Below, piece after piece: positions 374-18,803 of a DNA stretch of 64,000 bases. Numbering within the stretch: the stretch's first letter is position 1; each line of letters starts with the position of its first letter. The stretch comes from Chloroflexi bacterium B3_Chlor (GTDB lineage Bacteria; Chloroflexota; Anaerolineae; UBA7937; B3-Chlor): NCBI GenBank assembly GCA_005223035.1, contig NJBK01000012.1, forward strand, positions 815 through 64,814, read 5' to 3'. Made by a program: the position numbers and the translations under genes. The notes under the pieces were generated by a model. It did not search any database and had not been told where the DNA came from. It saw nothing but the letters and a program-made list of their open reading frames with translations.

Positions 374-1570
374 TCAACTCTCGACGTTGCACATGGATTC
401 CAGCACCAGTTCGCTTATGTCCACGGCCCTCATCCTGATCTTGGCTTGGCGGGCGCCAGTAAGCAGCGTGCGCTTGCACTGCTGGCAGGCTGAAACAACC
501 GCCGCAGCCCCCGTCTCCTGAGCCTGCTCCATCCGTAGCACACCAACCTGGGCCGTCACCTCCCGGTCTGAGATCTCAACGTCGCCTCCGCCACCACAGC
601 ACATCGCGTCCTGACCATAGCTAGCCATCTCCCTGAACTCTAGCTCCGGAATGTTGTTCACGATGGCCCGCGGAGCATCGTACACCCCGCTCTTGCGACC
701 CAGGTCACAGGGATCGTGGTAGGTCACTACTCTATCCACCGGACCCAGCTGGATCCTATCTTCCTCTATTAGCCGCAAAAGATACTCGGTGGCGTGCAGG
801 ATCTCCAACTCCTGAGGCAACTCCACGAACTGAGGATACACATGCGTCCAGGTATAGTAGCAGGAGGGGCAGGTGGTCACCAGCTTTGTCGAACCCAGTT
901 CTTTCACGCGTTCCACATTGTGGGTCGCCAACTCCCAAACCAGCTCCTTCATCCCGCCGCCATACAGAGGATACCCGCAGCACCACTCCTGTCCCCCCAT
1001 AGTGGTGAAACCAACATGGGCAACCTCAAGGATCTGCACCAACGCCTGAGGTATGGTATAGGCCTGAGGGTAGAAGGCGGACACACATCCCACGAAGTAG
1101 AGAACTTCGGCCCCCTTCTTGGCCTCGATGTCCTCCGGCATGTGTTCCAGGTTCTCGGCCCAGATCAGCCGTGTCTCATTGTCGTCCCCGGAAATGTTGT
1201 ACTTTGTCGTCACCGTCTCCCGCAGCATACCGATACCATCGGGGATTTTCAGTCCCTCCTTCACCGCATACTGCTTCAGCATTAGCATCGTCTCGGTGAG
1301 GTCAATGCCCCTTGGACAGCGCACAGTGCAGGCCTTGCAGGTGGTACACAGCCAGAAGGTAAGGCTATTCACCACTTCGTCTTTCAGACCCAACTGGACC
1401 AGCTTCCACAACTGCCGCGGCGTATAGTCCATGGCATAAGCCGTGGGGCAGGAAGCCGAACAAGTGCCGCACTGGATGCACGCGCGCAGCACGTCCAGAT
1501 CCGGCGTGATCTCCGCCCCAAACTCGAAGTCTGGTGCCCGGGTCGTGAAATCCAGAATGTCTGTGCCCAT
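374..1570 (-). CDS. HdrD/DsrK-like Fe-S oxidoreductase (fused HdrC-type ferredoxin plus HdrB-type double CCG domain)
   Basis: Track ORF 374..1579. It has two ferredoxin motifs (CIQCGTCSASCP, CTTCKACTVRCP) and then two CCG domains (..WCCGYP..TTCPSCYY.. and ..MCCGGGGD..SACQQCKR..). Start moved to ATG 1570 behind GAGGGTGAGGG; the track start is GTG. Confidence 0.8.
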   Translation of the reverse strand: MGTDILDFTTRAPDFEFGAEITPDLDVLRACIQCGTCSASCPTAYAMDYTPRQLWKLVQLGLKDEVVNSLTFWLCTTCKACTVRCPRGIDLTETMLMLKQYAVKEGLKIPDGIGMLRETVTTKYNISGDDNETRLIWAENLEHMPEDIEAKKGAEVLYFVGCVSAFYPQAYTIPQALVQILEVAHVGFTTMGGQEWCCGYPLYGGGMKELVWELATHNVERVKELGSTKLVTTCPSCYYTWTHVYPQFVELPQELEILHATEYLLRLIEEDRIQLGPVDRVVTYHDPCDLGRKSGVYDAPRAIVNNIPELEFREMASYGQDAMCCGGGGDVEISDREVTAQVGVLRMEQAQETGAAAVVSACQQCKRTLLTGARQAKIRMRAVDISELVLESMCNVES

Positions 1571-1779
1571 AGCCCTCACCCTCTCAACACCTGCCCTGTC
1601 TGCGGCAACTCTCGAACCGACACTGTGAACTCGTCAACAAGTGGGCGAAACTCCACCCAACCACAGCCGAGGTATGACCTCGGCATTGTGTGAGCAACTG
1701 ATAGACTTGGTGCTCGCAAGATTGGCGTCGCGGTAGCTACAACGAGTACACGCACAGAGAACGAGGTACGGTGCATGTG

Positions 1780-3747
1780 TCAAGCTACCTCAACTAGCCG
1801 CAGAGCTCCCCGCATCTCTGCCACTAACTGCTCATCCGTGAAATGCAGCAGTGTGATCGCTCTGGAAAGGCAGTGCCCGACACAGGTTCCGCACCCCTTG
1901 CAGGCGGTCTCCTCCACTTGTGCGTGCCCTTGCACTAATGCGATGGCACTGTACGGGCAAGCCATCACACACTCACCACAGCCGGAGCAGCGTTCGACGT
2001 TCACTTGGGCGATAGAAGGCTCCAAAGCCACCCTACCCTTGTCCATCATGCCCAGAGCTACCACGGCCGCCGCCCCCGCCTGAGCCACGGTATCGGGTAT
2101 GTCTTTGGGCCCCTGACAAGCTCCGGCAATGAAAACACCATCGGAAGCAGTCTCCACCGGGGCGAGCTTCGGGTGTTTCTCCAGGAAGAAGCCGTCCGCG
2201 CTGCGGCTGAGGCCAAATGTATGCGCAACCTCCACCGCATCACGCCGTGGCTCCAGGCCTGTGCTCAGGATAACCATGTCCACAGGAATCCGGCGTAGCT
2301 GACCCAGCAACGTATCCTCGCATTTGACGATCAGCTTCCCCTCTTCCTCAGGTCCCTCGACGACATCGGTCACCTCTGCACCCTTGCCCCGGATGAAGAT
2401 GACCCCCTCTTTCAGCAACCGCTTGTAGAACTCCTCATACCCCTTGCCGAAGCTGCGCATGTCGATGTACAGTTCGTAGATCTGGGCGTCGGTGACCTCC
2501 TTCACCAAGTGTGCGAACTTCAGAGACCACATACAACAGACTCGTGAGCAGTAGACATTATACCTCTCGTCCCGGCTGCCAATGCAGTGCAGGATAGCCA
2601 CCCTCTCCGGCTCACGGCCATCTTTCAAGAGCACTTTTCCGCCGGTGGGCCCGGCGGCGTTGATCATCCGCTCGAACTCGAGGCTGGTCAGGACGTTGTC
2701 TAGCCTGTCATAGCCGTACTCCGGCGCCCGGATAGGATCGAATAGATCGAACCCGGTAGCGACGATGATGGTCCCCACATCAAGCTCGACGACCTCGTCC
2801 TCCTGCTCGAAGTCAACGGCGCCTCTTGGGCAGAGTTTCTGGCAAGCACCGCACTTCCCCTTCTGGAACCAGATGCAGTTCTCGGTGTCTATCACCGGGA
2901 CTCTGGGCACTGCCTGAGCGAAAGGCATGTAGATGGCTTTGCGGGTGCCGATCCCGGCGTCAAACTCACTCAGTATGTTCTTGGCGGGACACTTCTCCTG
3001 GCACAGACCGCAGCCCGTACACAGATCTTCGTTCACATAACGTGCCCTCTTTCGGACCTTCACCTTGAAGTTGCCAACGTAGCCCGAAACCTCCTCCACC
3101 TCACCATAGCTCAGGATCTCGATGTTTTCGTGCTGTCCCACGGACACCATCTTCGGCGTCAGTATTCAAGCCGAACAGTCCAAGGTGGGGAAGGTCTTGT
3201 GCAGCTGGGCCATGTAGCCACCGATGCTGGGCTCCCTCTCTACCAGGTATACCTGCTTGCCCGCATCGGCGATGCGGAGGGCGGCTTCGATGCCGGCGAT
3301 GCCTCCCCCTACTATCAGAGCGGCAGGTTGAACAGGAACCTCCTTGACGGCCAAAGCCTCATGATGGGCCGCCCTGTACACCGCGGCGGCCACCGCCCGT
3401 TTCGCCCCCTGGGTGGCCTCGTCGGGGTCCTCGGTCACCCAGGAGACGTGCTCTCGGATGTTGGCCATCTGGAAGAAGAAGGGATTCAGCCCGGCATCCT
3501 CACAGGCACGTCGGAAGGTGGTCTCGTGCATGAGAGGGGTGCAGGAAGCCACCACCACCCGGTTCAATCCCAGCTCCTTGATGTCCTCCTTGATCAACTC
3601 CTGGCCCGGATCGGAGCACATGTATGCGTAGTCGCGCGCTACCGCTACCCCCGGCAGTCCAGTTGCGTACTCCGCGACCGCCTCCACGTCCACTTTGTCC
3701 GCTATGTTGGTCCCACACTGGCAGACGTAGACACCTATCTTCTCCAC
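1780..3747 (-). CDS. hdrA: Heterodisulfide reductase subunit A, long bifurcating type, probable selenoprotein (655 aa, Sec at codon 194)
   Basis: Track ORFs 3166..3747 and 1780..3150 lie in one frame and are joined by TGA 3166..3168. Motifs present: the HdrA N-terminal domain (IGVYVCQCGTNIA..YMCSDPGQ), FAD GxGxxG (LIVGGGIAGIEAAL), and ferredoxin motifs CTGCGLCQEKCP, CGACQKLCP, CSGCGECVMACP, CKGCGTCVGHC. GTG start 3747 lies 8 nt after AGGGGGG. Confidence 0.85.
3120..3168 (-). other. In-frame UGA (3166..3168) read as selenocysteine, plus candidate SECIS hairpins immediately downstream
   Basis: The minus strand reads GAC TGT TCG GCT TGA ATA CTG ACG CCG AAG ATG GTG = D C S A U I L T P K M V. Candidate hairpins are GACGCC-GAAGAU-GGUGUC, starting 6 nt after the UGA, and GUGUCC-GUG-GGACA(G)C about 20 nt after it. 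The hairpins were folded by eye only. Confidence 0.65.
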
Positions 3748-3796: not shown

Positions 3797-4675
3797 TCAT
3801 GTCATGTGAGGAGCCAAAAGGGCTGCAGCCGACACTAACTCCGTCCCCAGGCCAAGTTCCTCCCTGCCCAGCCCCAGGCTGACGCCGAGTAGCTGCGTGA
3901 AAAACAAGACTGGAAGGGAGAAATCGGTCCCAAACCGAGCGTTCACCTGGCCCTGATATGCCTCCACGTTGAGATGACAGAGAGGACAGGCCGTGGCAAG
4001 GCAACTGGCCCCTCTGCGCACCGCGTCGGCCAGCAGGTTGTGCACCAACTTCAGGGCTACTTCTTTCTTGTCGCTCATCATCAAGATGCCCCCACAGCAC
4101 GATGCTCTTAGAGGATAATCCACGACATCTGCACCGATCCAAGACAATAGGTCACCGAGAGCCGTGGGGAACTCCGCGTCATCAATCCCACTGGGACGGC
4201 TGAAGGCGCAGCCAAGGTAAGGGGCCACTTGCAAGCCCTCCAGAGGATGAGTCACCTTTTCCTGAATGGTCTCTTGACCTAGGTCGTTTACCAGTACCTC
4301 CAGCAGGTGGCGCACCCTCACCGATCCCCGGTACTCAAGATCAATTACCGCCAATGCCTCACCTACCCTCTCCCTCAGCTCAGCGTCCTCGGCGAGCCGT
4401 CGGTTGGTCTTGTCCATGATGCCGAAGCACCCGTTGCAGATGGTCACCAGATCGCACCCTGGGCTGTGTCTCTCGGCCAATCCCAAGTTTCGCGCATTGA
4501 GGGCGAAAGTGGAGAGACTCCGCAGCGAGTACGAGGGGCTCGTCCCGCAGCAATTCCAGTCATCCAGCTCCACCAATTCTAGACCTAGAGCCCCGGCGAC
4601 GGCCCAGGTGGAGAGATTGTAGGCTTTTGTACTCACCTCCTGAGAGCAACCGGGATAATAGGTGTACGCCATCAT
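3797..4675 (-). CDS. hdrB: Heterodisulfide reductase subunit B-like (two CCG domains)
   Basis: MMAYTYYPGC.. at the N-terminus, with CCG domain 1 (..WNCCGTS..ICNGC..) and domain 2 (..ASCCGGI..ACPLCHLN..). The start overlaps the hdrC stop (ATGATG / TGA). Confidence 0.85.
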   Translation of the reverse strand: MMAYTYYPGCSQEVSTKAYNLSTWAVAGALGLELVELDDWNCCGTSPSYSLRSLSTFALNARNLGLAERHSPGCDLVTICNGCFGIMDKTNRRLAEDAELRERVGEALAVIDLEYRGSVRVRHLLEVLVNDLGQETIQEKVTHPLEGLQVAPYLGCAFSRPSGIDDAEFPTALGDLLSWIGADVVDYPLRASCCGGILMMSDKKEVALKLVHNLLADAVRRGASCLATACPLCHLNVEAYQGQVNARFGTDFSLPVLFFTQLLGVSLGLGREELGLGTELVSAAALLAPHMT

Positions 4676-5244
4676 GCCTCCCCTTTCTCCTCGATGTACT
4701 CAAGCATCCTTGCCAAGTTCCGGCGTCCCTTGATCCTGCGCGGCAAGAGAGGAAACCGCCCACGCAACAGCATCTTCAGCCCAAACGGTGCCAGCTTGAT
4801 GAGTCCCAGAGGATTGAGCGTGCTCAAGAAATAGCGTATCATCAGTTCCGTCTCCGCGCTTCGTCCGTAGCGGTCGACGGTATTGACGAAAGCCTGATAT
4901 AGGGCCGGGCTCCCTGGAGGGTGGAGACCCCGCTCTACGGCCATCCGCTTGAGAAGGTACATGAAGTCGGTGAACTGGATTCCGGCTGGACAGCGAACCG
5001 TACAGTAGTAGCAAGAGGCACACAGCCATGGTGTATTGCTGCGCAGCACCCTCTCCAGTTGGTCAGCCCGCAGGGCAGCGATAATCTTGCGAGGAGTGTA
5101 ATCCATGGCATAGGCGGTGGGGCACGAAGCGGAGCACGTGCCGCATTGAATACATTCAAGCAGCTCCTTGCGGTGCCGGATAGCCTCTTCACCAAACCCC
5201 AAGTCCGATTCTCGTACGACCGAGTCCGCAACTTCTGTAGCCAT
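4672..5244 (-). CDS. hdrC: Heterodisulfide reductase subunit C-like (2x[4Fe-4S])
   Basis: CIQCGTCSASCP and CASCYYCTVRCP; 190 aa; ATG start. Confidence 0.85.
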   Translation of the reverse strand: MATEVADSVVRESDLGFGEEAIRHRKELLECIQCGTCSASCPTAYAMDYTPRKIIAALRADQLERVLRSNTPWLCASCYYCTVRCPAGIQFTDFMYLLKRMAVERGLHPPGSPALYQAFVNTVDRYGRSAETELMIRYFLSTLNPLGLIKLAPFGLKMLLRGRFPLLPRRIKGRRNLARMLEYIEEKGEA

Positions 5245-5250
5245 AAGTAC

Positions 5251-5658
5251 TTACCCTCCTAGCTCCTGGCCCGCTTGAGCTCGTAGCAAGATCTCTACCC
5301 ACTTCTCAGGGACGAGTTGCACCGCATCTAGCCCATGGATGGCTCTCAACTCGTTTATCCCCTTTCCGATAGGCAAAGCATAACCAGATTCTAGAACTCT
5401 CCTGAGATTAGCCTCATGTGCTACGGGAGGGTCTTCCTCCCGTCTCTTCTCCACCATAATGGCATGAATGTCCACCCCTTGGGGACAGACTTCCTGACAC
5501 CGCCAGCACGAGGAACAGAGCCAACTAGAGTAGTTATCCTCTCCAAGAAGGAAAGAGGTTATGGAATGAGCACCCAGCCTCTCTACGATGCACACTTCAC
5601 GGCACAGGCCACACTGGGTGCAATCCTCTAGTAGCGAATCCAGGCCTCCAACCGTCAC
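5251..5658 (-). CDS. hdrC: Second HdrC-like ferredoxin subunit (hdrC2)
   Basis: Track ORF 5251..5835 overlaps hdrB2 by about 180 nt. The conserved part starts near GTG 5658, which forms a GTGA overlap with the hdrB2 stop. Motifs: CTQCGLCREVC and CSSCWRCQEVCP. Confidence 0.7.
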   Translation of the reverse strand: MTVGGLDSLLEDCTQCGLCREVCIVERLGAHSITSFLLGEDNYSSWLCSSCWRCQEVCPQGVDIHAIMVEKRREEDPPVAHEANLRRVLESGYALPIGKGINELRAIHGLDAVQLVPEKWVEILLRAQAGQELGG

Positions 5659-6497
5659 GGCGAGCTCCCCAGAAGCTTCCCTGCCATCACGGGTCCGACA
5701 CCCAGTTCCGCTGGATCGATACCCATAGCCAAACCCACTAGCTGCGGCAGGGTCAACACCGGCATCTTGGATTCCGCACGACCCTCGTTCATTAGGCCCT
5801 GAAATCGTTCCAACAATAACTGACAGTTGCCACAAGCGTCTACTAATACGTCCGCCCCTGCAGCAGAGCTCAGCTTCCGTTGACCAGCCTCAAGACCTAG
5901 CTGCTCATTCACCAGATACAGAGTCGAACCGCAGCAATCGTACTCCGCGTCGTAGGGTACAACCTCCGCCCCGGTCAACTCCACGATGGAGCGCATGGCC
6001 TGGGGCTGCAGAGGATCGTCGAAACCAAGGACTTCGTGAGGTCGAAAGGCCTGGCAGGGGTGCGTCAGCGCGACCTTCAGCGACAACTCCACCCTCACTT
6101 TGTCCCTCATCCCCTCCAGTTGCTCGCTGAGGACCTGAACCAAGTGTATGACCCTCGTCCCTCCCTCGAAGTGCAATCCAATCTCATCCAGTCTTTCATT
6201 CACCACAAGGCGGAGGGAGGGATCCCGCAACGCTACCTCAGCCCGCAGCAGAGTGTTAGTGCAGTTGCCACAAATGGTCAAGACGGGGAACCCCATCCTC
6301 TCGGCGAGACTGAGATTGTAGGCCGCAAGGTAGAGCCATTTATCGGTGAAGGACTCCAACGGAGCTCCACAGCAAGCGGCGTGGGCGATACTTGCCGCAG
6401 AGATGTAAAGCTCCCTCAGCACCCTCTTGGCGGCCTTCTCGTACTGAGGCATGCGCTGGAGAACCAGACAGCCTGGGAAGAGCGCCATCCTCGCCAC
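5655..6497 (-). CDS. hdrB: Second HdrB-like subunit (hdrB2, two CCG domains)
   Basis: ..LFPGC.., ..AACCGAP..ICGNC.. and ..YDCCGST..ACGNCQLL... The start is either GTG 6497 or ATG 6488. Confidence 0.8.
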   Translation of the reverse strand: MARMALFPGCLVLQRMPQYEKAAKRVLRELYISAASIAHAACCGAPLESFTDKWLYLAAYNLSLAERMGFPVLTICGNCTNTLLRAEVALRDPSLRLVVNERLDEIGLHFEGGTRVIHLVQVLSEQLEGMRDKVRVELSLKVALTHPCQAFRPHEVLGFDDPLQPQAMRSIVELTGAEVVPYDAEYDCCGSTLYLVNEQLGLEAGQRKLSSAAGADVLVDACGNCQLLLERFQGLMNEGRAESKMPVLTLPQLVGLAMGIDPAELGVGPVMAGKLLGSSP

Positions 6498-6500
6498 AGT

Positions 6501-7565
6501 TCAACCAACCACTACCTTGGCGAAATCCGTCGGCTCGACCCCCGGAGATTCTATGCGATGCTTCTCATAGAACTCACTGATCGTCTCCTCGACCTCAGCT
6601 TCTTTCCTGCCGACCAGCGCCTGTGAAAGATCGGTCAACTTGTCAGCCGGGTAGAAGAAGAAGTCACCCGAAAGCGCAAGGGAGGTGATGGCGCCATCTG
6701 CGATCTCCACATCGCCCCGGATGAGGCCCCCTGGAGCCTTGTGAACCAGGTGTTTCACATCCACGCCAGACGCGATTCTGACCGTCCGTCCTTCCATCGG
6801 TCTGCCTATCTTGTACAGCCACTCCTCGTTCAAGAACTTGGGGGACAATCTAGACACCTCATTCCGCAACTCCTCGTCCACCTCTGCCCGGGGCAAAGGT
6901 CCCAAGAGCTTCTCGAAGTTCCGGGCCAGACTGGCATTGAGTGACTCCCTCGTCGGCTTCTCCGCCAACTCCCGTTTGATCGTGGTCAGGTTTTCCCTCA
7001 TGCTCTCGTAGACCTTGTCGCGGAACTTCTCGTCAGGGACCCTCAACACCCGGCTCATCATCTCGTAGTTGAAGTCAACGATCAGGTTGCCCACGAGGAT
7101 CAGGTAGTCGCCTATTTCCGCGGCACCATTGCCAGATATCTTTCGCTTCTTTGCAACAATATCGTTGACCGGTTTGTATTCCGCCGGGATGCCTATCTCC
7201 CGATAGGTTTCGATGGGGGGCTCCAAGAACTTGCGATAGAAGGTGGTCTTGTCGGATGGGGCCAAGGGGTTCTCCTTGTGTATAATCAACTGGTAGAACA
7301 GTTGGTCGCCATCCAGATAGACTCCCCCTCCTCCCACCTCCCGTCGGAACACGGGGATGTCATTGGCTCGGCAAAACTCCACGTCCACTTCCTTCTCCAG
7401 GTCCTGATGATAGCCGATGCAGACGTAGGGAGAGGCAGGAGAGAGCAGCACCAACGCCTCCCTGTGCAGACGAGGCAAAGCGTGGTAGGTCAGTTGTGAA
7501 TCGGGCCAGGGAACGCTCCCCAGGTCATAGAGATGCACTGGCGCCTCCAGCCGAATTATGACCAA
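6501..7565 (-). CDS. lplA: Lipoate-protein ligase (LplA-type catalytic domain plus C-terminal accessory domain)
   Basis: 354 aa with BPL/LplA-like blocks (..DIPVFRREVGGGGVYLDGDQLFY.., ..KISGNGAAEIGDYLI..). It sits directly upstream of the hdr genes. The TTG start is uncertain. Confidence 0.7.
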   Translation of the reverse strand: MVIIRLEAPVHLYDLGSVPWPDSQLTYHALPRLHREALVLLSPASPYVCIGYHQDLEKEVDVEFCRANDIPVFRREVGGGGVYLDGDQLFYQLIIHKENPLAPSDKTTFYRKFLEPPIETYREIGIPAEYKPVNDIVAKKRKISGNGAAEIGDYLILVGNLIVDFNYEMMSRVLRVPDEKFRDKVYESMRENLTTIKRELAEKPTRESLNASLARNFEKLLGPLPRAEVDEELRNEVSRLSPKFLNEEWLYKIGRPMEGRTVRIASGVDVKHLVHKAPGGLIRGDVEIADGAITSLALSGDFFFYPADKLTDLSQALVGRKEAEVEETISEFYEKHRIESPGVEPTDFAKVVVG

Positions 7566-7612
7566 GTCTATCTAATTATACCAGAATGAGCGGTGAATCT
7601 CAACAGAAGCGA

Positions 7613-8563
7613 TCACGCGACGAGCACGTCCAACATCATGGCCAGAAAAAGGACGAAGAGGTAGGGGCTGGAGAGCTTGAACATCACCCAGGCCTTCTCG
7701 CGCGAGGGATTCCGCGCCAAAATGACATTGCTGACGGTTATGACCAACCCAAGAACCAGGGCTGTGCTCAGATAGATGAGACCAAACCCTCCCACGAAGT
7801 AGATGGCTAAGGAACAAAGGTACATCAACACGACGGTAGCCATCGTGCAGCGAGTGGTCTTCTCCAGGGAGAGCACGGCGGGCAACATCGGGACGCTAGC
7901 TTTCTTGTAGTCCTCTGTATGGAATATGGCCAGGTTCCAGATATGATTGGGTATCCACAGCACCACAACTGCCGCGATGAGCAGCGCCTCGACGTCCAAG
8001 CTGTTCTTGACGACGGCCCAGCCGAAGAGAACAGGGATCCCACCGCTAAGTCCTCCTAGAATGATGTTCAGGGGGCTTCTCCTCTTCATCAACAAGCTGT
8101 AAACCAGGACATTGTCAACGAAGCCCAGAAGGCCCCATAGGAAGGCCAACGCATTGAGCGTCCATGCCAAGGCTAGTGAAACCACCGTCAAAAGAAGGCC
8201 CCAGTAGAGAGCCCTCTCGGGGGGATGGATCCTGCCACTCGGTATGGGACGCCGCCTGGTCCGCTCCATCACGCGGTCCAAGTCACGGTCGATATAGCAG
8301 GTTATGGTATTCGCTCCTGCGCAGCCCAGAGTGACGGCAACAAGGGCAGTCATGAAAAGGCTAGCGGGGAGATTCCATCCGTCGGCAGCGATGGCTATCG
8401 CAGCTAGAGATGTGAAGACCAGGAGAAGGACGGAAGCAGGCTTGGTGACTTCAACGTAGGGCCACAAGCCTCTCAGGGAAGAAACGGACCCTAGGCCGAT
8501 AGGTCGCTGAGTTTGTTCGCCTCCTTCGTATTCGGAATCGTAAGGCTGCACCACGACACCCAA
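7613..8563 (-). CDS. ctaB: UbiA-family prenyltransferase, probable heme O synthase (protoheme IX farnesyltransferase)
   Basis: Polytopic membrane protein. The motif NTITCYIDRDLDRVMERTRRRPIPSG matches my recollection of the CtaB/CyoE signature (YIDRDID..M.RT..RP). The start (TTG 8563) is uncertain. Confidence 0.65.
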   Translation of the reverse strand: MGVVVQPYDSEYEGGEQTQRPIGLGSVSSLRGLWPYVEVTKPASVLLLVFTSLAAIAIAADGWNLPASLFMTALVAVTLGCAGANTITCYIDRDLDRVMERTRRRPIPSGRIHPPERALYWGLLLTVVSLALAWTLNALAFLWGLLGFVDNVLVYSLLMKRRSPLNIILGGLSGGIPVLFGWAVVKNSLDVEALLIAAVVVLWIPNHIWNLAIFHTEDYKKASVPMLPAVLSLEKTTRCTMATVVLMYLCSLAIYFVGGFGLIYLSTALVLGLVITVSNVILARNPSREKAWVMFKLSSPYLFVLFLAMMLDVLVA

Positions 8564-8587
8564 CGTTCTTGACCCATCGTCAAGGGG

Positions 8588-9802
8588 TCAGTCTTCCATA
8601 ACCCTGGCTACCAGCTCCACTATGTCCAGTACCCTCATTCTCGCCTTTTCTTGGCGCGCCGCGGTCATCAAGGTCCGTTTGCATTGCTGACAGGCGGAAA
8701 CAAGAACTTGGGCCTCCGTGGCCAGCGCCTGTCGCAGCCGCCGAGCCGCCACCGCCCCTACCAATTCCTCATCGCACATCGCAACGTCACCCCCACCGCC
8801 GCAACAGAGGGCTTGCCGCCGGTTCTCCTCCATCTCAGCGAACGAGATACCGGGAATACTCCGTATCACACTCCTTGGAGCATCATATATGCCGCTGTTC
8901 CTTCCCAAGTCACAGGGGTCATGATACGTGACCAGCCGGTCGAACTCGTTCAGTTTAATGCGCCCCTCACCGATTAGTTCCAGCAGGAGCTCGCTCAGAT
9001 GCTGTACTTCGAAGCCCAGGGGTTCTCCCATGATTCTCGGGTACTCATGTAGCCACGTGTGATAGCAGGAGGGACACCCCGCCACTAGTCTGTGAGCCCC
9101 GATGCCTCTTATCGCCGCCACGCTATGCTCCACCAACTCCTTGATTGCACTTTCCATGCCAGCGATAATGAGCGGATATCCGCAACACCACTCTTCACCC
9201 CCCAGCGTGGTGAAATCCAGACCAGCTCTCTCCATCACCGTCACCGTCGCTTGGGGAATGCCATAGGTCTGAGGATAGAAGGCGGGTGTGCAGCCAACGA
9301 AGTAGACTATGTCCGCCTCCCGCTTGCCCGCTAGGCCCTCGGGTACCCGTTCCAGGTTCTCGCTCCAGATAAGGCGGTCCTGATTGTCGTCTCCAGAGAT
9401 GTTGTATCTCGTAGTGACCATCTCACGCAGAGTGTCGAAAGTCTCAGGGTAATGACCCAGATCGACCAGATGCTCCCGCATGGCAATCCACAGAGGACGA
9501 GTGTCTATTTTGACCGGGCATACCACCCTACAGCGTCCACAGAGGGTGCAATCGTAGACCCCGTCGGAGAATTCCTCCAAGGACTCATCAGCCGGGAACC
9601 TAGACCCAAACAGCCTGGCGCGGAACCCATACTGAGCCCCTATGAAAGACCTCATGCGGCGTATCTTGTCCGCCGGTTGCAGAGGCTCCTCACTTTTCTC
9701 CGCATACGTGGGGCACCACTTGACACACTCGCCGCAGCGAGTGCACGCGTCAAGCTCCATCAGCTGCTTGAATGAGTAGTGAGAGAGGTCAAACTTGCCC
9801 AT
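8588..9802 (-). CDS. HdrD/DsrK-like Fe-S oxidoreductase (paralog of 374..1570)
   Basis: CTRCGECVKWCP and CTLCGRCRVVCP, then CCG domains (..WCCGYP..GCPSCYH.. and ..LCCGGGGD..SACQQCKR..). The ATG start overlaps the stop of the upstream membrane subunit. Confidence 0.8.
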   Translation of the reverse strand: MGKFDLSHYSFKQLMELDACTRCGECVKWCPTYAEKSEEPLQPADKIRRMRSFIGAQYGFRARLFGSRFPADESLEEFSDGVYDCTLCGRCRVVCPVKIDTRPLWIAMREHLVDLGHYPETFDTLREMVTTRYNISGDDNQDRLIWSENLERVPEGLAGKREADIVYFVGCTPAFYPQTYGIPQATVTVMERAGLDFTTLGGEEWCCGYPLIIAGMESAIKELVEHSVAAIRGIGAHRLVAGCPSCYHTWLHEYPRIMGEPLGFEVQHLSELLLELIGEGRIKLNEFDRLVTYHDPCDLGRNSGIYDAPRSVIRSIPGISFAEMEENRRQALCCGGGGDVAMCDEELVGAVAARRLRQALATEAQVLVSACQQCKRTLMTAARQEKARMRVLDIVELVARVMED

Positions 9803-10643
9803 GAGTTACTCCAGCAGGCACCGAGGGGGTCTCCTCCCTCGGTAGGGAATTGACAGTGGCGATGATAGCGCCAGCCACAGCATGGAAGAACTTGCTGAAG
9901 GGGATGTACGCCACCACCACGGAGGAGAATATGGCATGAAACAGAAACAGCCAGTCATGGAGATCGGCCCACGGCAGAGGTGCAGTCCTCACCAGCGAGG
10001 CCACTGGGTAGCCGATGAAAGCATAGGCCGCGGTGGCAGGCAACTCCTCAAACTCGAAGCTCAGGCGGCATATCTCCGCCAAGTAGCCTGAGATCATGAT
10101 GACCACCAGTAACACGATGATCTGCATGTCCACCATTCGCGTGCGCATGTCCAGTTCCCTGATCACGTAACGGCGGACGATGACAATCATCAACCCCACC
10201 ATGACCACCAACCCCCCGAACTCGTTCAGGAAGGCCGTGATCGCATGATCTTTGTTGGCGAAAATGGAGGTGAAGAGATTATCCATCTTGAAGATGGGTA
10301 TCATGATGTCAACGCTTATGAAAGAGAAACCGCTCAGGATAGTCAGCAACACAATACCGCCGAACACGCAGAAATGGGCAGTCCAGCGCAACTTGTGCGC
10401 CCTGAACAAGGTAGGGTGAATCGCACCGTCCCAAATCAACACCCGTAGTAGAGCTCCCAACCTGGCGCTAAAGATCGTAGCCAGAGTGCTTCTAATCAGC
10501 AGGAACAGCTTCCTACGAGCGCTGATGTCACCTCTGCCGTTGACGGTCCCCTGAAGCCAAATCGTCAGGGTGAACACCGTCCCTGCGACGAAAACGATCA
10601 TAGCCGGTATGTGGAAGAGCCAGAATACGAGCATTATGTCCAT
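9789..10643 (-). CDS. Polytopic membrane protein, probable heme-b/quinone-interacting partner of the HdrD-like protein (DsrM/HdrE/NarI-like)
   Basis: 284 aa with about 6-7 hydrophobic helices carrying conserved-looking His residues (FWLFHIP, WTAHFCVF, LFLFHAIF, KFFHAVAG). It is translationally coupled to the HdrD-like gene. The family assignment rests on context. Confidence 0.5.
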   Translation of the reverse strand: MDIMLVFWLFHIPAMIVFVAGTVFTLTIWLQGTVNGRGDISARRKLFLLIRSTLATIFSARLGALLRVLIWDGAIHPTLFRAHKLRWTAHFCVFGGIVLLTILSGFSFISVDIMIPIFKMDNLFTSIFANKDHAITAFLNEFGGLVVMVGLMIVIVRRYVIRELDMRTRMVDMQIIVLLVVIMISGYLAEICRLSFEFEELPATAAYAFIGYPVASLVRTAPLPWADLHDWLFLFHAIFSSVVVAYIPFSKFFHAVAGAIIATVNSLPREETPSVPAGVTHGQV

Positions 10644-10922
10644 TCGTCAAACCCTATCTAGGACGGCGTCTGAAACGCACGGCCCTTTCCCAACCAGCTA
10701 CAGATCGTCGCCTTCCCAGACTGCATAGAGACAGCACGAACCTCTCGGTCGTAGATCTTGAAACATTCGGGGGAGGCCAACGGTCAATGCCTGCTGCCGC
10801 GCGCCGCCCTGCTCATCGGCCTCCCTTCGCGATACAGCAAGTCCCAGAACCAGGAGCATCCACCCGTCGAGAGGTGTGAGTCTCAGCCTTACGTTTCTTG
10901 CTGGAGAACTCTGGGCGAGATC

Positions 10923-11360
10923 CTAGGCCCCTTCGAGGATATCCTTGTACTTTTCTATCTCTGACTCTACGAACGACTGGAACTCGGCGTCGGAGGCCTT
11001 GAGCAGGTTATCAAGCTCGCCTAGATCGGAGGCCTCGATCTTGGCTAGCCAACCTTCGCCGAAGGGGTCCTCGTTGATCGGCGCCACATCCCATTCCAGT
11101 TCCTCGTTGGTCTCGGTGATGGCTCCGCTGACCATGGCCGCGATGCGACCGACCCACTTGCCGGACTCCATGGACATGAAGGTCTTGCCTTGCTCCACTG
11201 TGCGTCCAGTGCGTGGTACCTCAACGTATACAATCTCCTTCGATATCTTCTGGGCGAATTCGGTGACTCCCTGCGTCACCGCGTTACCCTCCACCAGAGC
11301 CCAGGCATGATTCTTGTCGTAGTACAGTTCATCCGGGAAGTTGTATTCGCCGATATTCAT
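10923..11360 (-). CDS. GcvH-like lipoate-binding protein (LbpA-like); no gcvT/gcvP nearby
   Basis: ..YDKNHAWALVEGNAVTQGVTEFAQ..VYVEVP..MESGKWVGRIAAMVSGAITETNEEL..DPFGEGWL.. = H-protein fold, with the lipoyl-Lys in ESGKW. Start set to ATG 11360 (MNIGEY) behind GGAGAGGAGG. The track start at 11387 would lie at the predicted transcription start. Confidence 0.8.
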   Translation of the reverse strand: MNIGEYNFPDELYYDKNHAWALVEGNAVTQGVTEFAQKISKEIVYVEVPRTGRTVEQGKTFMSMESGKWVGRIAAMVSGAITETNEELEWDVAPINEDPFGEGWLAKIEASDLGELDNLLKASDAEFQSFVESEIEKYKDILEGA

Positions 11361-11393
11361 GTCCTCGACACCTCCTCTCCAACTCATCGGGGA

Positions 11394-13709: not shown

Positions 13710-14522
13710 TTAGCAATGCAGCAGAGTTCCTTCCTCGACCCGGCTATCCAGCAACGCCTTCCTGATCAGCCCCTCTTGCTCACCAGAGATGAAACGTACC
13801 GTGATAGCTGGGTGAGCCTCGATCAACTGGGACATGGTTCGCACTTTGGCCAGCATGCCCCCAGTCACGTCAATGCCATGGGAGCCGGTCAGCATTTTCT
13901 CTACCTCGGCAAACTTGGAGGCAGATATCTTCTTGAGAAGGCGGGCTGCTGGCTCTTTCAAAGGGTCTCCAGTGAATACGCCTTCCACGTGACCGGCCAG
14001 GATGATCCTTCGAGGGGCGAGATGGACGCCAAGATAGGCAAAGATCTGTTCCGTGGATATAATGGCAGTGCCACGCACTCTGTCGAAAGATACATCGCCA
14101 TACACCATTGGCACCAACCCCCGCTTGAGGGCCTCCTTGATCAGGGCCACCTCCAAATGAACCAGTTGCCCATCGTCGCACAGAGCCGAGGCGGAGGGCT
14201 GTATGGGGAGAACCGGTATCCTTTGGGCGAGCAGTAGGTCGGCAACGACCCGGTCTAGCCGGGCGGCCACCACCGCTGTCTCAGCATACCCCCACCAATC
14301 ATCGCTTTCGAGCAGCCCTTCATGGACGCCGTACTTGCTCGCAGGCGCATGGGCGAAGGATCCGCTGCCGTGCCCCAAGAGGAGCTTCAGATCAGGAGCA
14401 TGGTCCAGAGCCTCCCGTATCTCCTGGGCCACACGGCGAATGACCCTTTCCCTGGCCGTCTGCGGGGATCCCTTATCGGTGATCAGGGAACCCCCTAACT
14501 TGAGGTATACCAGTTCGCCCAA
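13710..14522 (-). CDS. Isopentenyl phosphate kinase (amino-acid-kinase fold)
   Basis: LKLGGSLITDK.., ..LLLGHGSGSFAH.., ..IDVTGGM..; 270 aa; clustered with mevalonate kinase. Confidence 0.7.
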   Translation of the reverse strand: MGELVYLKLGGSLITDKGSPQTARERVIRRVAQEIREALDHAPDLKLLLGHGSGSFAHAPASKYGVHEGLLESDDWWGYAETAVVAARLDRVVADLLLAQRIPVLPIQPSASALCDDGQLVHLEVALIKEALKRGLVPMVYGDVSFDRVRGTAIISTEQIFAYLGVHLAPRRIILAGHVEGVFTGDPLKEPAARLLKKISASKFAEVEKMLTGSHGIDVTGGMLAKVRTMSQLIEAHPAITVRFISGEQEGLIRKALLDSRVEEGTLLHC

Positions 14523-14540
14523 CCCCGTGCCATCCTGTGC

Positions 14541-15224
14541 TCAATCTCCAGTGCTCACGGACCTCCCCTTCGTGGCCAGCAGAACCACCGCCCTCTCAGA
14601 AGCTTGGGGCAGATATCTGACCCCTTTAGGCACTACGGTCATCTCGCCCCTTCCCAAGGTCACGGTGCCTAACTCGGTGCCCACGGTCAGACTATCCTCC
14701 TGCACCAGTAGGAGTTCACTTCCCCCGCTGCAGAGATGCTCCTCGCCCTCACCCTCGTATCGAACCACAGACAGGCACAGATCGTCCACGGCGATCAGTT
14801 CACGGGCTACGGACGGTTCCGTCAGCTGCAGGGCCTCGGCGCCGATGTTGACCGGATGAATCTTTCCTGCGCCTTCTAGCACAAACAGCCTCCGCTTGCC
14901 GTTCTGCCTGTTAGCGAAGACCTTCCTTTCGAACACCAGGGCTACCGCTCGGGAGACGGAACCGCAGCGGTGAGCGACCGCCTTGGGTATCACCGCCATC
15001 TCTCCACTGCGCAGCATGTTGTTGCCCCACTCACTTTCCAGAGCCAGCTCTCCATCCAGAACCAGAAAAAGTTGTTCCTGATCAATGTGTTTGTGCCACG
15101 CTATCATACCTTCACTAGTGAACAGGCGGGCCACGAAATCATCAATGTCGGCTAGATCAACAACCAGAAAAGGCTGCGTAAGGCCGTTAGCCTCCTCGAA
15201 CGCGTTGATCTTCGCAATTGGCAT
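14541..15224 (-). CDS. Bicupin-domain protein of unknown function
   Basis: Two cupin-like halves (..WHKHIDQEQLFLVLDGEL..GEMAVIPKAVAHR.. and ..GEEHLCSGGSELLLVQED..GEMTVVPKGVRY..). Confidence 0.55.
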   Translation of the reverse strand: MPIAKINAFEEANGLTQPFLVVDLADIDDFVARLFTSEGMIAWHKHIDQEQLFLVLDGELALESEWGNNMLRSGEMAVIPKAVAHRCGSVSRAVALVFERKVFANRQNGKRRLFVLEGAGKIHPVNIGAEALQLTEPSVARELIAVDDLCLSVVRYEGEGEEHLCSGGSELLLVQEDSLTVGTELGTVTLGRGEMTVVPKGVRYLPQASERAVVLLATKGRSVSTGD

Positions 15225-15262
15225 AGCACCTCCTGTGGTCTAGGCCAACTCAAGCCATCACA

Positions 15263-16285
15263 TCATTGTTCTTCTTCTGGCACTACAGACGACGCCGGAG
15301 AAGGCACAAGATCTTTGCTCGCCTCGACCTCCGCCTGGATCACACCGTCGGCTCCCTCGGCCTCCAAGGCATGCTTCACCTGCTCGCCCGTCTGCGCAGT
15401 CACCAGGGCGATCATGTTTCCGCCGCGACCCGCCCCCGACAGTTTCGCACCCAAGGCTCCGTGTCGCCTAGCCGCCCTCACCAGAGCATCCAGTCGAGAG
15501 GAGGACACCCCCATATCCTGCAGCAGGCGGTGGTTGTCGTCCATCAGACGCCCTACCTGCCCCACCTCTCCCCTCTCGATGGCCCAGCGGGCCTTCACAG
15601 CTATATCGCCCACACCGTCGAACAGGGCTTCATATCTTTCCTTGGATTCCTCCCATGCTCGACGGACTGCGCCAACCACTATCCTCGTGGGGCTCTCTGC
15701 CCCAGTATCCGCAATGACAAGTGACAGGGGTCTTCCTACTGGGAAGGTCTCCAACCTCTCACCGCGGACAAAGTATACCGGCCGTTCATACGCTATCACC
15801 GTATTATCTATCCCGCTAGCCGTGCCGTGATGCAGCTTCTCCACTTCGTACACCAGTCGGGAAACCTCTTCCGCAGTGAGTTTCTTGGAGAAGTGCTCTG
15901 CCACCGCCCTAGTCATTGCTGTAGAGACGGCAGCACCGCTACCTAGGCCTCGCGCAATGGGAATGCTGGACTCCACAGCTATCGTCAGATCCTGCTCCAA
16001 ACTCAAGCCGAGGTAGGTGAGAACATTCACCACCGTGGCTTGCAGAGGGCTTGCCGCTGACTTGCTCTCTCTCTGTCCCACGTGAAAAACGCGGCCCAGA
16101 TCCTTGGCCACGATGACGATCCCCTGCTCTTTCTCACCCTCTTCGACCGTCACTCGAGCCTGAACCTGGGTCACCGGCACCGCTATGGCTGGCCGGCCAT
16201 AAACCACAGCGTGCTCCCCCACGAGAATGATTTTCCCTGGCGCGTGAGCTATGGTCATCAATAGCGTGCCTTTCAGGCCATCCAA
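15263..16285 (-). CDS. mvk: Mevalonate kinase (GHMP kinase)
   Basis: APGKIILVGEHAVVYG, GLGSGAAVS, KLSGAGRGGNMIAL. Confidence 0.85.
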   Translation of the reverse strand: MDGLKGTLLMTIAHAPGKIILVGEHAVVYGRPAIAVPVTQVQARVTVEEGEKEQGIVIVAKDLGRVFHVGQRESKSAASPLQATVVNVLTYLGLSLEQDLTIAVESSIPIARGLGSGAAVSTAMTRAVAEHFSKKLTAEEVSRLVYEVEKLHHGTASGIDNTVIAYERPVYFVRGERLETFPVGRPLSLVIADTGAESPTRIVVGAVRRAWEESKERYEALFDGVGDIAVKARWAIERGEVGQVGRLMDDNHRLLQDMGVSSSRLDALVRAARRHGALGAKLSGAGRGGNMIALVTAQTGEQVKHALEAEGADGVIQAEVEASKDLVPSPASSVVPEEEQ

Positions 16286-16360: not shown

Positions 16361-17659
16361 GTGCAGGAGGTTCGTTTCGTGGGAGAGTCAACCCTCCCCA
16401 TCGGGGAGTCAAATGTGCTGGTCACTCTGGGGATCCTGGTCATCAGCCTCCTGATGGTAGCCTTATTCTCCAGTTCTGAGGCCTCATTGATTTCGGTCAG
16501 CAAGATTCGCATCCGCAGCCTGGCAGAACAGGGCAACCGCGCCGCCCAAGCAGCCAGGGAACTATGGGAGAATCATGATAAGCTGTTCGCCACCATCCTG
16601 CTGATCGAGAACGCCTTCATCATCTTCGCCTCCTCAGTAGGCACCACCCTGGCCCTGCTGATCTTTGGTGAGCAGGGCGTGCTTGTGGCCAGCCTGGTTA
16701 TGACCGTGCTCATCGTGCTTTTCGGTGAGATAACCCCCAAGACCTTCGCCGCCCGCAACGCGGAGCGGACGGCCCTCCTGGTTGCCAGACCCATCAGCTT
16801 GATCGTAAAGGTGCTGACCCCGGTCATCTACATCTTCACCCTCATTGCCAACTCTCTCATAAGCCTGGTAAGCCGTGGCCGAGAGAGTCAATCCCCTTTC
16901 ATCACACCAGAGGAGATACTCTTGCTGGCCACGATCGGAGAAGAGCAGGGCACGGTGCTGGAGATGGAACGGGAAATGGTGCACAAGGTCTTCGAATTCG
17001 GCGAGCGTCACGTACGTGAGGTGATGATACCTCGGCCCGACATCGTGGGAATCGAAAGTGGCGAGACCGTCGATACCCTGTTGAGGACTTTCACCGGTTC
17101 CAGTCACTCTCGCTTCCCGGTGTACGGCGGTGACCTGGATAATATCATCGGTTTTGTCTCCATCAAGGACGTCTTACTCTCCATGGCCAAAGACACCGCT
17201 GCCCGTCAGGCACAGCTGAGCGAACTCGTCCGACCGACCATCTTCGTCCCCGAAACCAAGCAAGTCGGCAGATTGTTCCACGACATGCGCGTTCAGCACA
17301 TGCAGGTAGCCATCGTCATCGACGAATATGGTGGTACGGCGGGGATGGTAACACTGGAAGAACTGGTGGAGGAAGTAGTGGGACGTCTCACCGATGAATG
17401 GGTGACGGAGTCCCTGGTGGTGGAGATCGATGAGCACACGTTCCAGGTGGACGGCCTGATCCGCGTAGATGAGGTTAACAGTGAGCTGCGCATACAGCTG
17501 CCCGAAGATGACAACTACGACACCGTTGCCGGCTTCATCCTATGTCATCTCCGACACATACCCCAGGAGGGAGAAAAACTTCAGTGCGGTGATCTGACCA
17601 TCAGCGTTCAGAGGATGAAAGGCCCCAAGATAGAGAGCGTTTTGATCAAGACGAAGTGA
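16361..17659 (+). CDS. CNNM/CorC/TlyC-family protein (DUF21 membrane domain, CBS pair, CorC_HlyC domain)
   Basis: 432-aa ORF with this architecture read from the sequence. The more likely start is GTG 16379, 8 nt after GCAGGAGG. Confidence 0.8.
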   Translation: MQEVRFVGESTLPIGESNVLVTLGILVISLLMVALFSSSEASLISVSKIRIRSLAEQGNRAAQAARELWENHDKLFATILLIENAFIIFASSVGTTLALLIFGEQGVLVASLVMTVLIVLFGEITPKTFAARNAERTALLVARPISLIVKVLTPVIYIFTLIANSLISLVSRGRESQSPFITPEEILLLATIGEEQGTVLEMEREMVHKVFEFGERHVREVMIPRPDIVGIESGETVDTLLRTFTGSSHSRFPVYGGDLDNIIGFVSIKDVLLSMAKDTAARQAQLSELVRPTIFVPETKQVGRLFHDMRVQHMQVAIVIDEYGGTAGMVTLEELVEEVVGRLTDEWVTESLVVEIDEHTFQVDGLIRVDEVNSELRIQLPEDDNYDTVAGFILCHLRHIPQEGEKLQCGDLTISVQRMKGPKIESVLIKTK

Positions 17660-18110
17660 AGCAACCCCCTCGAATCTCCTCTATCCTCTGCCGCATTCTC
17701 TCCCAGTGAGTGCCCCTCCAATACACTTTATCACACTGCGGACACGAACTGAATTGCACGTGCTCACGGAAGACATAGGGCGGAACCCGGCCCTCAACTT
17801 CCTCCCTGTGAATTGGCTGCAGGGCCGTATTGCAGCGTGCACAGCGAGACAGAGAGCCATCCATGTCCAAATCGAGGTCGCGTAGCAGTTGTGCCAGCTG
17901 CTCCTCGAATCTATCGCTTGCAACGAGGAGAGACCTCAAGCCTTTCCGCCTGGTCAACTCCCGATCCCTGGTCAAGAGCATGCGCCCTTCCGCCCGCGCT
18001 ATACGTACCAGATCGTGATCTTCCAGTTGCGGGAAGTAGGCGGTATCGTACCCCAGAATGCGCAACCACTTCGCCAGGCGACCCAGCATAGCATCGGCAA
18101 GGAACTTCAT
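17646..18110 (-). CDS. Mut7-C-type (PIN-like) RNase domain protein with C-terminal zinc ribbon
   Basis: MKFLADAMLGRLAKWLRILGYDT..LLTRD.. followed by CARCN..CPQC. Its 3' end overlaps the convergent CNNM gene by 14 nt. Confidence 0.65.
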   Translation of the reverse strand: MKFLADAMLGRLAKWLRILGYDTAYFPQLEDHDLVRIARAEGRMLLTRDRELTRRKGLRSLLVASDRFEEQLAQLLRDLDLDMDGSLSRCARCNTALQPIHREEVEGRVPPYVFREHVQFSSCPQCDKVYWRGTHWERMRQRIEEIRGGCFTSS

Positions 18111-18125
18111 CTCGAGTACCAGACC

Positions 18126-18644: not shown

Positions 18645-18677
18645 CCAACCTCCAAGCAAAGATGAGAGAGAGCGCAC

Positions 18678-18713
18678 AAAAAACGGCTTCCCTCGCCAGG
18701 TGACAAGGGAAGC
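18678..18713 (-). terminator. Intrinsic-terminator-like hairpin plus U6, inside the 5' leader of the UPF0316 gene
   Basis: The minus strand reads GCTTCCCT-TGTCACCTGGCG-AGGGAAGC CG TTTTTT and ends 34 nt before ATG 18644. Confidence 0.6.
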
Positions 18714-18774
18714 AAAGCCAGCGCCACGCGTTTGATCACACCGAAGCCCACCCTACCACCTCTTATGTAGAGGA

Positions 18775-18803
18775 ATCTTAACCACCTGCCCGAGCATTGT
18801 CAA
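18775..18803 (-). promoter_or_regulatory. Sigma70-type promoter TTGACA-17 nt-TAAGAT
   Basis: The minus strand reads cgcTTGACAatgctcgggcaggtggtTAAGATtcc. It lies upstream of the terminator hairpin above. Confidence 0.55.

Follow-up and report, generated by a model that had tools for sequence, protein, structure and literature searches.

The hdrA locus and its reading frame

We analysed a stretch of 64,000 nucleotides (nt) of Chloroflexi bacterium B3_Chlor (class Anaerolineae; contig NJBK01000012.1, positions 815 to 64,814), in the following called the window, which carries close to its left edge, on the minus strand, an hdrA gene with an in-frame UGA codon that is a candidate for selenocysteine (Sec) insertion. 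The list of open reading frames (ORFs) contains two products at this site, both in the same frame on the minus strand, i.e. 3166..3747 (193 amino acids (aa), GTG start) and 1780..3150 (456 aa, ATG start). An earlier note, made from the letters of this DNA, had proposed that the two belong to a single hdrA gene which ORF calling had split at an in-frame UGA without a change of frame, and translation confirmed the coordinates, the frame and the peptide. Read from 3747 to 1780, the minus strand forms a single frame of 655 codons plus stop, whose sole internal stop is the TGA of codon 194 at 3168..3166, located in the context FPTLDCSA*ILTPKMVSVGQH, i.e. FPTLDCSA-*-ILTPKM. The minus-strand letters at the junction are GAC TGT TCG GCT TGA ATA CTG ACG CCG AAG ATG GTG TCC (D C S A * I L T P K M V S), with the frame unshifted. 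The features of the gene are the following:

1780..3747, minus strand: complete hdrA, with a GTG start at 3747, a putative Sec-UGA as codon 194 and the terminal TGA at 1782..1780

3166..3168, minus strand: in-frame UGA, codon 194, probably read as Sec and forming a C191-x-x-U194 motif (DCSAU), according to translation and homologue alignment

3148..3150, minus strand: ATG taken as the start of the 456-aa ORF, corresponding to the internal Met200 of the conserved PKM motif; this Met is invariant in 120 homologues

3131..3149, minus strand: hairpin 2, the probable Sec insertion sequence (SECIS), with the 5' arm U3149-C3142, the loop G3141 U3140 G3139 and the 3' arm G3138-A3131, comprising seven pairs and one G x G mismatch

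3143..3160, minus strand: hairpin 1, GACGCC-GAAGAU-GGUGUC, which overlaps the SECIS hairpin at nt 3148..3143 and represents a competing, probably incidental fold

Of the 61 large ORFs of the window, about 28 end in TGA, which is therefore an ordinary stop in this genome, the code of which is not reassigned. A window-wide search for other in-frame TGA candidates yielded none; what remained were ordinary stops behind which the next gene uses the same frame, or non-coding frames.

Codon 194 lies at a conserved Cys/Sec position of HdrA

In an alignment of the joined 655-aa product with its 120 best full-length homologues, the column of codon 194 holds Cys in 119 sequences and Trp in one, and the surrounding motif, KTFPTLDC[S/A]A-x-ILTPKM, is essentially invariant. 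The stop codon hence occupies a Cys position of HdrA, as had been proposed before, and the residues ILTPKMV behind it, which had been taken for the continuation of the conserved HdrA motif, were read correctly, ILTPKM being near-invariant in the same homologues. In a fragment alignment, residue 194 (fragment residue 52) aligns to Cys197 of 5odc_A and to X (selenocysteine) 197 of 9sfi_A from M. maripaludis. The paper on the M. maripaludis HdrA structure designates this residue Sec197/U197 and suggests that it forms a Cys-Sec pair located between the A3 cluster and the flavin adenine dinucleotide (FAD) (PMC13518236). According to a summary of earlier structural work, Cys197 is a ligand of the partner protomer's N-terminal [4Fe-4S] cluster (PMC9012536). 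Sec-using archaea, Deltaproteobacteria and Clostridia have long been known to possess selenoproteins of the HdrA family (PMC1794560, PMC13188914), which agrees with the statement of the earlier note that the family is a recognised one (PMC1794560).

The lone Trp in the alignment (P0019; L078, 1242-3200) was considered as a mistranslated TGA and rejected, since the codon is truly TGG, in a Dehalococcoidia paralogue of the Cys type. This TGG at the Cys197-equivalent codon of a Dehalococcoidia metagenome contig represents either an error or a damaging mutation.

The TGA is shared by many relatives

The genome scan was based on one genome per species of GTDB and yielded 77 Chloroflexota and archaeal loci with 96 hdrA copies. 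At the homologous position, 51 of these copies have TGA, 26 have TGT and 19 have TGC, the latter two adding up to 45 Cys-type copies. Among the 19 closest, Anaerolineae-type loci (L001-L019), the TGA is present in 26 of 27 hdrA copies, with L015 as the exception. A degenerate DNA pattern for DC[S/A]A-TGA-ILTPKM was moreover found in at least 120 metagenome contigs. Genome loci and metagenome contigs among the matches listed, together with the window, sum up to 191 TGA copies. Since the TGA is shared by so many independent copies, it is neither an error nor a private nonsense mutation.

The codons +1 to +5 between the TGA and the ATG encode the peptide ILTPK, which is invariant in the 51 copies, although each of its positions is represented by two to four synonymous codons. 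From this we conclude that the stretch is translated, which rules out a natural split into two polypeptides. Homologues that naturally end or begin at this point, named in the earlier note as grounds for abandoning its proposal, were not seen: all 45 Cys-type copies and the 120 full-length homologues run through codon 194 without a break.

Two features of codon usage were observed directly at the UGA (3163-3171 on the minus strand) in Sec copies. The Ile codon immediately after it is AUA in 44 of 52 Sec copies compared with one of 45 Cys copies, and within a clade the preceding Ala codon is invariant, being either GCU or GCC. Neither codon is part of the SECIS hairpin, and their usage may reflect a codon-context effect on UGA decoding.

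The second hairpin is a likely SECIS

The earlier note had described two small hairpins behind the UGA as potential bacterial SECIS. Both are present as described; however, only the second stood up to comparison, in its agreement with published criteria and in its conservation, whereas the first lies too close to the UGA and is not conserved. We numbered the hairpins with the U of the UGA as +1 and used criteria for bacterial SECIS that comprise a loop of 3-9 nt, a stem of 4-16 base pairs (bp), a G in the first two loop positions, a distance of 16-37 nt from the UGA and a minimum free energy (MFE) of -7.5 kcal/mol or lower (PMC13188914). Hairpin 2 of the window, which spans nt +20 to +38 and begins 16 nt past the UGA codon, agrees with all of them, having a GUG loop (3 nt; G28 U29 G30), a stem of 5+2 bp, a spacing of 24 nt from UGA to loop and an energy of -8.2 kcal/mol.

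An equivalent hairpin is present in 51 of the 52 genome-derived Sec copies. The RNAalifold consensus of 29 Anaerolineae-type copies consists of the pairs U20-A38, G21-C37, U23-A35, G24-C34, U25-A33, C26-G32 and C27-G31 and the mismatch G22 x G36. The pairing GUGUCC-GUG-GGACA(G)C that had been assigned by eye lies inside 3149..3131 and was retained, except that the relatives refine its outer pairs to U20-A38 and G21-C37 with the mismatch at G22 x G36. In the Dehalococcoidia-type consensus (RNAalifold) the arms are U20..C26 and G30..A36, and the loop is G27 G28 U29. The stems thus differ between the two clades, and G28 U29 is located in the loop in both. A joint structural alignment of the hairpins of both clades was not possible, MAFFT holding the codon register and the stems being offset by one or two nt; the Anaerolineae and Dehalococcoidia registers were tested separately because of this offset.

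The constraint on the RNA is visible at the level of codons. Codons +7, +8 and +10 (GUG UCC, GGA) are unchanged throughout 29 distinct copies of the Anaerolineae type, codon +9 varies at its third base only, which is a loop position, and Gln at codon +11, present in 26 copies, is encoded by CAG in 25, while the codons flanking this frozen stretch from +7 to +11 vary freely. In the Dehalococcoidia type (22 copies), the stretch GCC UCG GUG AGG UCA CAC GAA, codons +7 to +13, is frozen. The stems also show compensatory changes. Among metagenome variants, the G22 x G36 mismatch becomes a G-C pair in the common GGACGCC form, and G22-C36 / U23.G35 is exchanged for A-U / C-G in AUGACGUCC-GUU-GGACGUCAC; in the Dehalococcoidia register, U25-A31 / C26-G30 is exchanged for C-G / A-U and C23-G33 for G-C. 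Overall, 97.4% of cells are paired in the Anaerolineae register compared with 28-60% in slid controls, with one pair altered on both sides, and 100% in the Dehalococcoidia register, with three pairs altered on both sides and a covariation score that was reached by none of 500 shuffles.

The hairpin is furthermore specific to Sec copies. The same 22-nt stretch has a mean energy of -8.68 kcal/mol in the 52 Sec copies and of -2.63 kcal/mol in the 45 Cys copies (Mann-Whitney p 2e-16), and in Cys-type Bathyarchaeia genes with the same peptide, MVSVGQH, varied codons break the stem. Most Cys copies have a weak hairpin or none, with two exceptions among the 45. Based on these comparisons, we regard hairpin 2 as a likely SECIS.

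The two exceptional Cys-type (TGT) hdrA genes, in L033 (at about 2950) and L044 (at about 10574), carry a strong 8-bp hairpin exactly at the SECIS position, namely AUGAGCUUGGUAGGAGCUCAU with -9.5 kcal/mol and a variant with -7.6 kcal/mol. These may be fossil SECIS left by a conversion from Sec to Cys.

In the Dehalococcoidia-type SECIS (e.g. L037, L039, L042, L047), Arg (AGG) is encoded where 117 of 120 Cys homologues have Gly, and Ala-Ser replaces Thr-Gln. As judged from these alignments, RNA structure overrides protein conservation in the Dehalococcoidia-type copies. The two Chloroflexota clades would accordingly have evolved different SECIS stems at one site, with the RNA forcing amino-acid changes such as Gly to Arg.

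The first hairpin is probably incidental

The loop of hairpin 1 begins 11 nt past the UGA and hence outside the range of 16-37 nt. Its energy varies between -9.1 and -1.4 kcal/mol over the Sec copies, and copies of the Dehalococcoidia type essentially lack it. The 5' arm is made up of Thr and Pro codons required by the protein, with the third position of the Thr codon being free (A, G or C). When the first 12-16 nt are held single-stranded, hairpin 2 becomes the MFE structure, and this would be the state with the UGA in the ribosomal A site. We rejected hairpin 1 as a SECIS on account of its 11-nt spacing, its lack of conservation and the position of its 5' arm in the UGA-proximal stretch, which is assumed to be unwound by the ribosome. 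It is probably incidental, or at most a competing fold.

Evidence for Sec decoding in related Anaerolineae

A second selenoprotein gene is found in the same cluster of relatives. In 12 Anaerolineae loci (L001-L005, L009, L010, L012-L015, L017), the catalytic Sec motif HCARL*HSSTV of fdhA, the gene for the alpha subunit of molybdopterin formate dehydrogenase, contains an in-frame TGA, and this fdhA(U) is located 3-6 kb downstream of hdrA. The TGA of fdhA is followed by a hairpin of the form GUGGCC-GGUCU-GGCCGC or, compensated, GUCACC-GGUCU-GGUGAC, with G23 U24 at the position known from E. coli fdhF. In L003, whose HdrA is 88% identical to that of the window and whose locus is syntenic, hdrA is followed downstream by mvhD, a gene for an HdrD-like protein, another hdrA whose corresponding codon is likewise TGA, and an fdhA (16691-18808) split by its TGA. 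L015 combines fdhA(U) with a Cys-type hdrA. In single-cell genomes of Anaerolineales, genes for both SelB and formate dehydrogenases with Sec have been described (PMC4959059), and other reports on Chloroflexi agree on Sec-containing formate dehydrogenases (PMC5736913, PMC3971608). We consider this good evidence for Sec decoding at the level of the lineage.

The HdrA protein and a putative route to its full-length form

Residues 3-650 of the joined protein align with the solved HdrA chains 8rvu, 8rvv, 5odc, 9sfi and 7bkb (643-671 aa) at E values of 1e-195 to 5e-231. Pfam assigns a Pyr_redox_2/FAD domain and two Fer4 regions (236-310 and 579-634), and all four HdrA domains are present, i.e. the N-terminal Cys-rich iron-sulfur domain, the thioredoxin-reductase-like FAD domain, the inserted ferredoxin and the C-terminal ferredoxin. 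The best NCBIfam matches are HdrA2 (841 bits, cut-off 1100) and HdrA (639 bits, cut-off 1400). Since both are below the equivalog cut-offs, the protein is, by its sequence, a member of the long, methanogen-type HdrA family and not an equivalog of the methanogen enzyme. The nearest hdrA loci all belong to metagenome-assembled genomes of Anaerolineae/Anaerolineales, and protein identity reaches 90%; among full-length homologues of the Cys type, the best show 65-74% identity and belong to Anaerolineae, Dehalococcoidia and Bathyarchaeia. The host is identified as a bacterium by an F-type ATP synthase operon, MreB and MacB/FtsX encoded in the window, and another disulfide or substrate than CoM-S-S-CoB (the heterodisulfide of coenzymes M and B) is therefore likely.

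In bacteria, Sec insertion by SelB-GTP-Sec-tRNA(Sec) is a well-established pathway. Applied to this gene, a ribosome arriving at the UGA would already have melted the competing hairpin 1, and SelB-GTP-Sec-tRNA(Sec) would bind hairpin 2 and insert Sec, resulting in the full-length 655-aa HdrA. Residue 194 would by homology be part of a C-x-x-U pair beside the FAD, its archaeal counterpart being either a ligand of the N-terminal [4Fe-4S] cluster in the partner protomer (PMC9012536) or part of a Cys-Sec relay between cluster and FAD (PMC13518236). HdrA itself would, again by homology, be a flavin-based bifurcating subunit, which together with the adjoining HdrB and HdrC probably forms an electron-bifurcating module.

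Evaluation of Sec recoding and of alternative explanations

We consider it very probable that 1780..3747 is one gene, which encodes a 655-residue HdrA-type flavin/iron-sulfur protein and in which UGA codon 194 is recoded to Sec. By every sequence-level test applied, it is a bacterial selenoprotein gene and belongs to the HdrA selenoprotein family. The central proposal of the earlier note, i.e. that hdrA is probably a selenoprotein gene mis-split by ORF calling, is borne out by the Cys/Sec column, the TGA in relatives and the conserved SECIS-like hairpin.

Several observations weigh against Sec recoding of codon 194. Neither tRNA-Sec nor selA, selB or selD was detected in the 64-kb window by ARAGORN and Pfam, the window being devoid of any tRNA gene. 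Likewise, tRNA-Sec (ARAGORN) and signature motifs of SelA, SelB and SelD were absent from 198 fetched loci, and in these loci as in the window only EF-Tu and IF2 matched. Rfam gave no match over the whole window at gathering thresholds, and a permissive Rfam scan of 3050-3250 (E up to 10) returned chance-level hits to IRE_II and microRNA families only, with nothing SECIS-like. Unconstrained MFE folding of the window sequence picks hairpin 1 (-8.7 vs -8.2 kcal/mol) plus a short 4-bp stem. Covariation in the Anaerolineae register is thin, six of the eight pairs never varying, and the register was assigned by predicted fold, which slightly biases the pairing percentages of 97.4% and 100%; 184 of the 191 copies fall into the two registers. 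Finally, the mvhD gene adjoining hdrA is decayed (see below), so that some erosion of the cluster in this genome is apparent.

The last observation would also suit the explanation that the TGA is a nonsense mutation or a sequencing or assembly error, with the gene being a pseudogene or the codon in reality TGC or TGT, and the TGG in the one Dehalococcoidia contig demonstrates that single-base oddities occur in metagenome assemblies. However, the TGA is located at exactly this codon in 51 copies of independent assemblies and in the metagenome contigs described above, it is followed by a hairpin specific to the TGA copies, and both halves of the gene are intact and 80-90% identical to their orthologues, with no further stop or frameshift. 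The comparative data effectively refute this explanation, the probability of which we regard as negligible. The gene could also naturally specify two polypeptides, one of 193 aa ending in DCSA and one of 456 aa starting from the ATG at 3150. An ATG is indeed located five codons past the TGA, and ORF callers yield exactly these products. Yet the invariant ILTPK with its synonymous variation indicates translation of the intervening codons, the Met is the conserved residue of the PKM motif of unsplit homologues, the Cys-type copies and the full-length homologues are continuous, and a split protein would lose the residue corresponding to 197, which is functionally placed in solved structures (PMC9012536). 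We consider a natural split highly improbable.

A further explanation accepts read-through and assumes that the UGA is read as Trp, Cys or Gly, by a suppressor tRNA, near-cognate decoding or Sec-independent recoding, with the hairpin merely stimulating the process. Stem-loops downstream of stop codons can in general stimulate read-through, and the missing Sec machinery genes in the window would fit such a scenario. Against it, TGA ends about half of the window genes, which is at odds with a genome-wide reassignment, archaeal HdrA is known to carry Sec at this position, and the hairpin has the G-U loop and the spacing of a bacterial SECIS. In relatives, moreover, fdhA is a further selenoprotein gene of the classical kind and has a canonical SECIS, and Anaerolineales have been reported to encode SelB (PMC4959059). 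Incorporation of a standard amino acid is in our view very unlikely, and Sec is the preferred assignment of residue 194.

Comparison with known systems

The Sec-containing HdrA of Methanococcales (M. maripaludis U197, 9sfi; M. jannaschii) has the same four domains over its full length and Sec at the homologous residue in DCxxU-ILxPKM (PMC13518236). In contrast to the archaeal SECIS, which lies in an untranslated region, the putative SECIS of the window is inside the coding sequence just after the UGA, as in the bacterial mode. The host of the window is a bacterium without coenzyme M/coenzyme B metabolism, so that the substrate must differ, and the partners are two HdrB/C sets, HdrD-like proteins and, in relatives, FdhA(U) instead of the archaeal Vhu/Fwd. 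The selenoproteins of bacterial HdrA type in Syntrophobacter fumaroxidans, Syntrophus, Moorella thermoacetica and Carboxydothermus share the in-frame UGA and the SECIS in the coding region (Zhang et al. 2006, PMC1794560). Those of Deltaproteobacteria and Clostridia often occur in several copies per genome beside the selenoprotein genes MvhD/FrhD, FdhA and GlpC (PMC1794560), which is the same here, the difference being the phylum, Chloroflexota (Anaerolineae, Dehalococcoidia). For Chloroflexi, the searchable literature describes only formate dehydrogenases as selenoproteins (PMC4959059, PMC5736913, PMC3971608); HdrA(U) of Anaerolineae and Dehalococcoidia thus seems to extend a known family in a manner not reported so far, albeit an unsurprising one.

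With respect to the RNA element, the hairpin of the window can also be compared with well-characterised elements. The SECIS of E. coli fdhF, a hairpin within the ORF downstream of the UGA with a G-U opening its small apical loop, is the reference bacterial SECIS. The window hairpin resembles it in its location within the ORF and in a loop that opens with G-U. It differs in that the loop G-U is at nt 28-29 in hdrA and at nt 23-24 in fdhF and in the fdhA of the relatives; furthermore, the hdrA loop consists of 3 nt, a bulged U is lacking, and the stems are unrelated in sequence.

The cluster also resembles the sHdr-LbpA system (PMC6067878, PMC11094781), with which it shares two HdrB/C-type sets, an HdrC/B-like fusion protein, a small ORF that follows hdrA, and a GcvH-like lipoate carrier together with a lipoate-protein ligase. 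sHdrA, however, is short, with about 350 aa (a single iron-sulfur cluster plus FAD) compared with the 655 aa of the window HdrA, and its structure 6tjr_A matches the latter over residues 320-567 only. Pfam domains of the sulfur transferases DsrE, TusA and rhodanese were not found among the approximately 60 window ORFs. Because of the long HdrA form and the lack of sulfur transferases in the window, we rejected membership in sHdr and regard the likeness as a resemblance only.

Speculatively, Sec-HdrA might be part of an undescribed Anaerolineae complex composed of two long HdrA(U), two HdrB/C sets, HdrD-like proteins, a Sec-containing formate dehydrogenase (in relatives) and the GcvH-like carrier with its own ligase. 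This would be a formate-driven or similar bifurcating Hdr that bridges HdrABC and sHdr-LbpA and whose "heterodisulfide" is a protein-bound lipoamide or dithiol; we put this idea forward as an unlikely, if conceivable, one.

For annotation, the consequence is that one 655-aa selenoprotein gene should be called instead of two ORFs. The same mis-split concerns at least 190 Chloroflexota hdrA copies from genomes and metagenomes, so that many HdrA(U) are probably recorded as fragments in ORF-based predictions. The HdrA selenoprotein family would be widened to Anaerolineae and Dehalococcoidia, marking these abundant sediment and subsurface bacteria as selenium users. In addition, the two clades provide a well-supported pair of natural bacterial SECIS variants for a residue whose archaeal role, cluster ligand or Cys-Sec relay, is debated (PMC13518236). 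The finding does not change what is known about the encoding of Sec and represents a routine new example.

Gene cluster and further genes of the window

The order of the minus-strand cluster is GcvH-like, NarI-like, HdrD-like, UbiA, LplA, HdrB, HdrC-like, HdrC, HdrB, HdrA, mvhD remnant, HdrD-like, second hdrA. The following neighbours of hdrA were assigned:

3797..4675, minus strand: hdrB, two CCG domains, directly upstream of hdrA (Pfam CCG; NCBIfam CoB_CoM_SS_B, E 3e-60, below the cut-off)

4672..5244, minus strand: hdrC, 4Fe-4S dicluster, upstream of hdrB (Pfam Fer4_8; NCBIfam CoB_CoM_SS_C, E 1e-20, below the cut-off)

374..1579, minus strand: HdrD/GlpC-like gene, Fer4 and two CCG domains, downstream of hdrA (Pfam, NCBIfam)

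6501-7565, minus strand: LplA, lipoate-protein ligase (Pfam)

10923-11387, minus strand: GCV_H, GcvH-like lipoate carrier (Pfam, NCBIfam)

Within 3797-11387 on the minus strand, the GcvH-like carrier and LplA are embedded amid the two HdrB/HdrC sets, HdrD-like proteins, the NarI-like membrane protein and UbiA, and this order is kept in L003. Genes for the T or P protein of glycine cleavage are absent near the GcvH-like gene.

Directly after hdrA, at 1576-1779 on the minus strand, lies a decayed mvhD (FlpD), whose N-terminal part (..YLVLCACTRCSYRDANLAS..) and C-terminal part (..VDEFTVSVRELPQTGQVLRG*) are in different frames. Compared with the intact 138-aa MvhD of the syntenic L003 (11965-12381), the remnant is short by about 215 nt. 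A second hdrA paralogue has its N-terminal part (MTNRPRRIGVFVCHCGTNIADKVD...) at 1-353 on the minus strand and is cut off by the left edge of the window. Since the equivalent second copy of L003 (13605-15566) also has TGA at the Cys197-equivalent codon, the genome of the window probably encodes at least two HdrA selenoproteins.

Two further observations in the window are unconnected to hdrA. A 352-aa protein with a CAP12/Pycsar-type TIR effector domain is encoded at 62921-63979 on the minus strand and is a candidate anti-phage defence gene. At 13710-16285, also on the minus strand, a gene for a protein of the amino-acid-kinase family (isopentenyl-phosphate-kinase-like) adjoins one for a GHMP kinase (mevalonate-kinase-like), a pair which is consistent with the mevalonate pathway of Chloroflexota.

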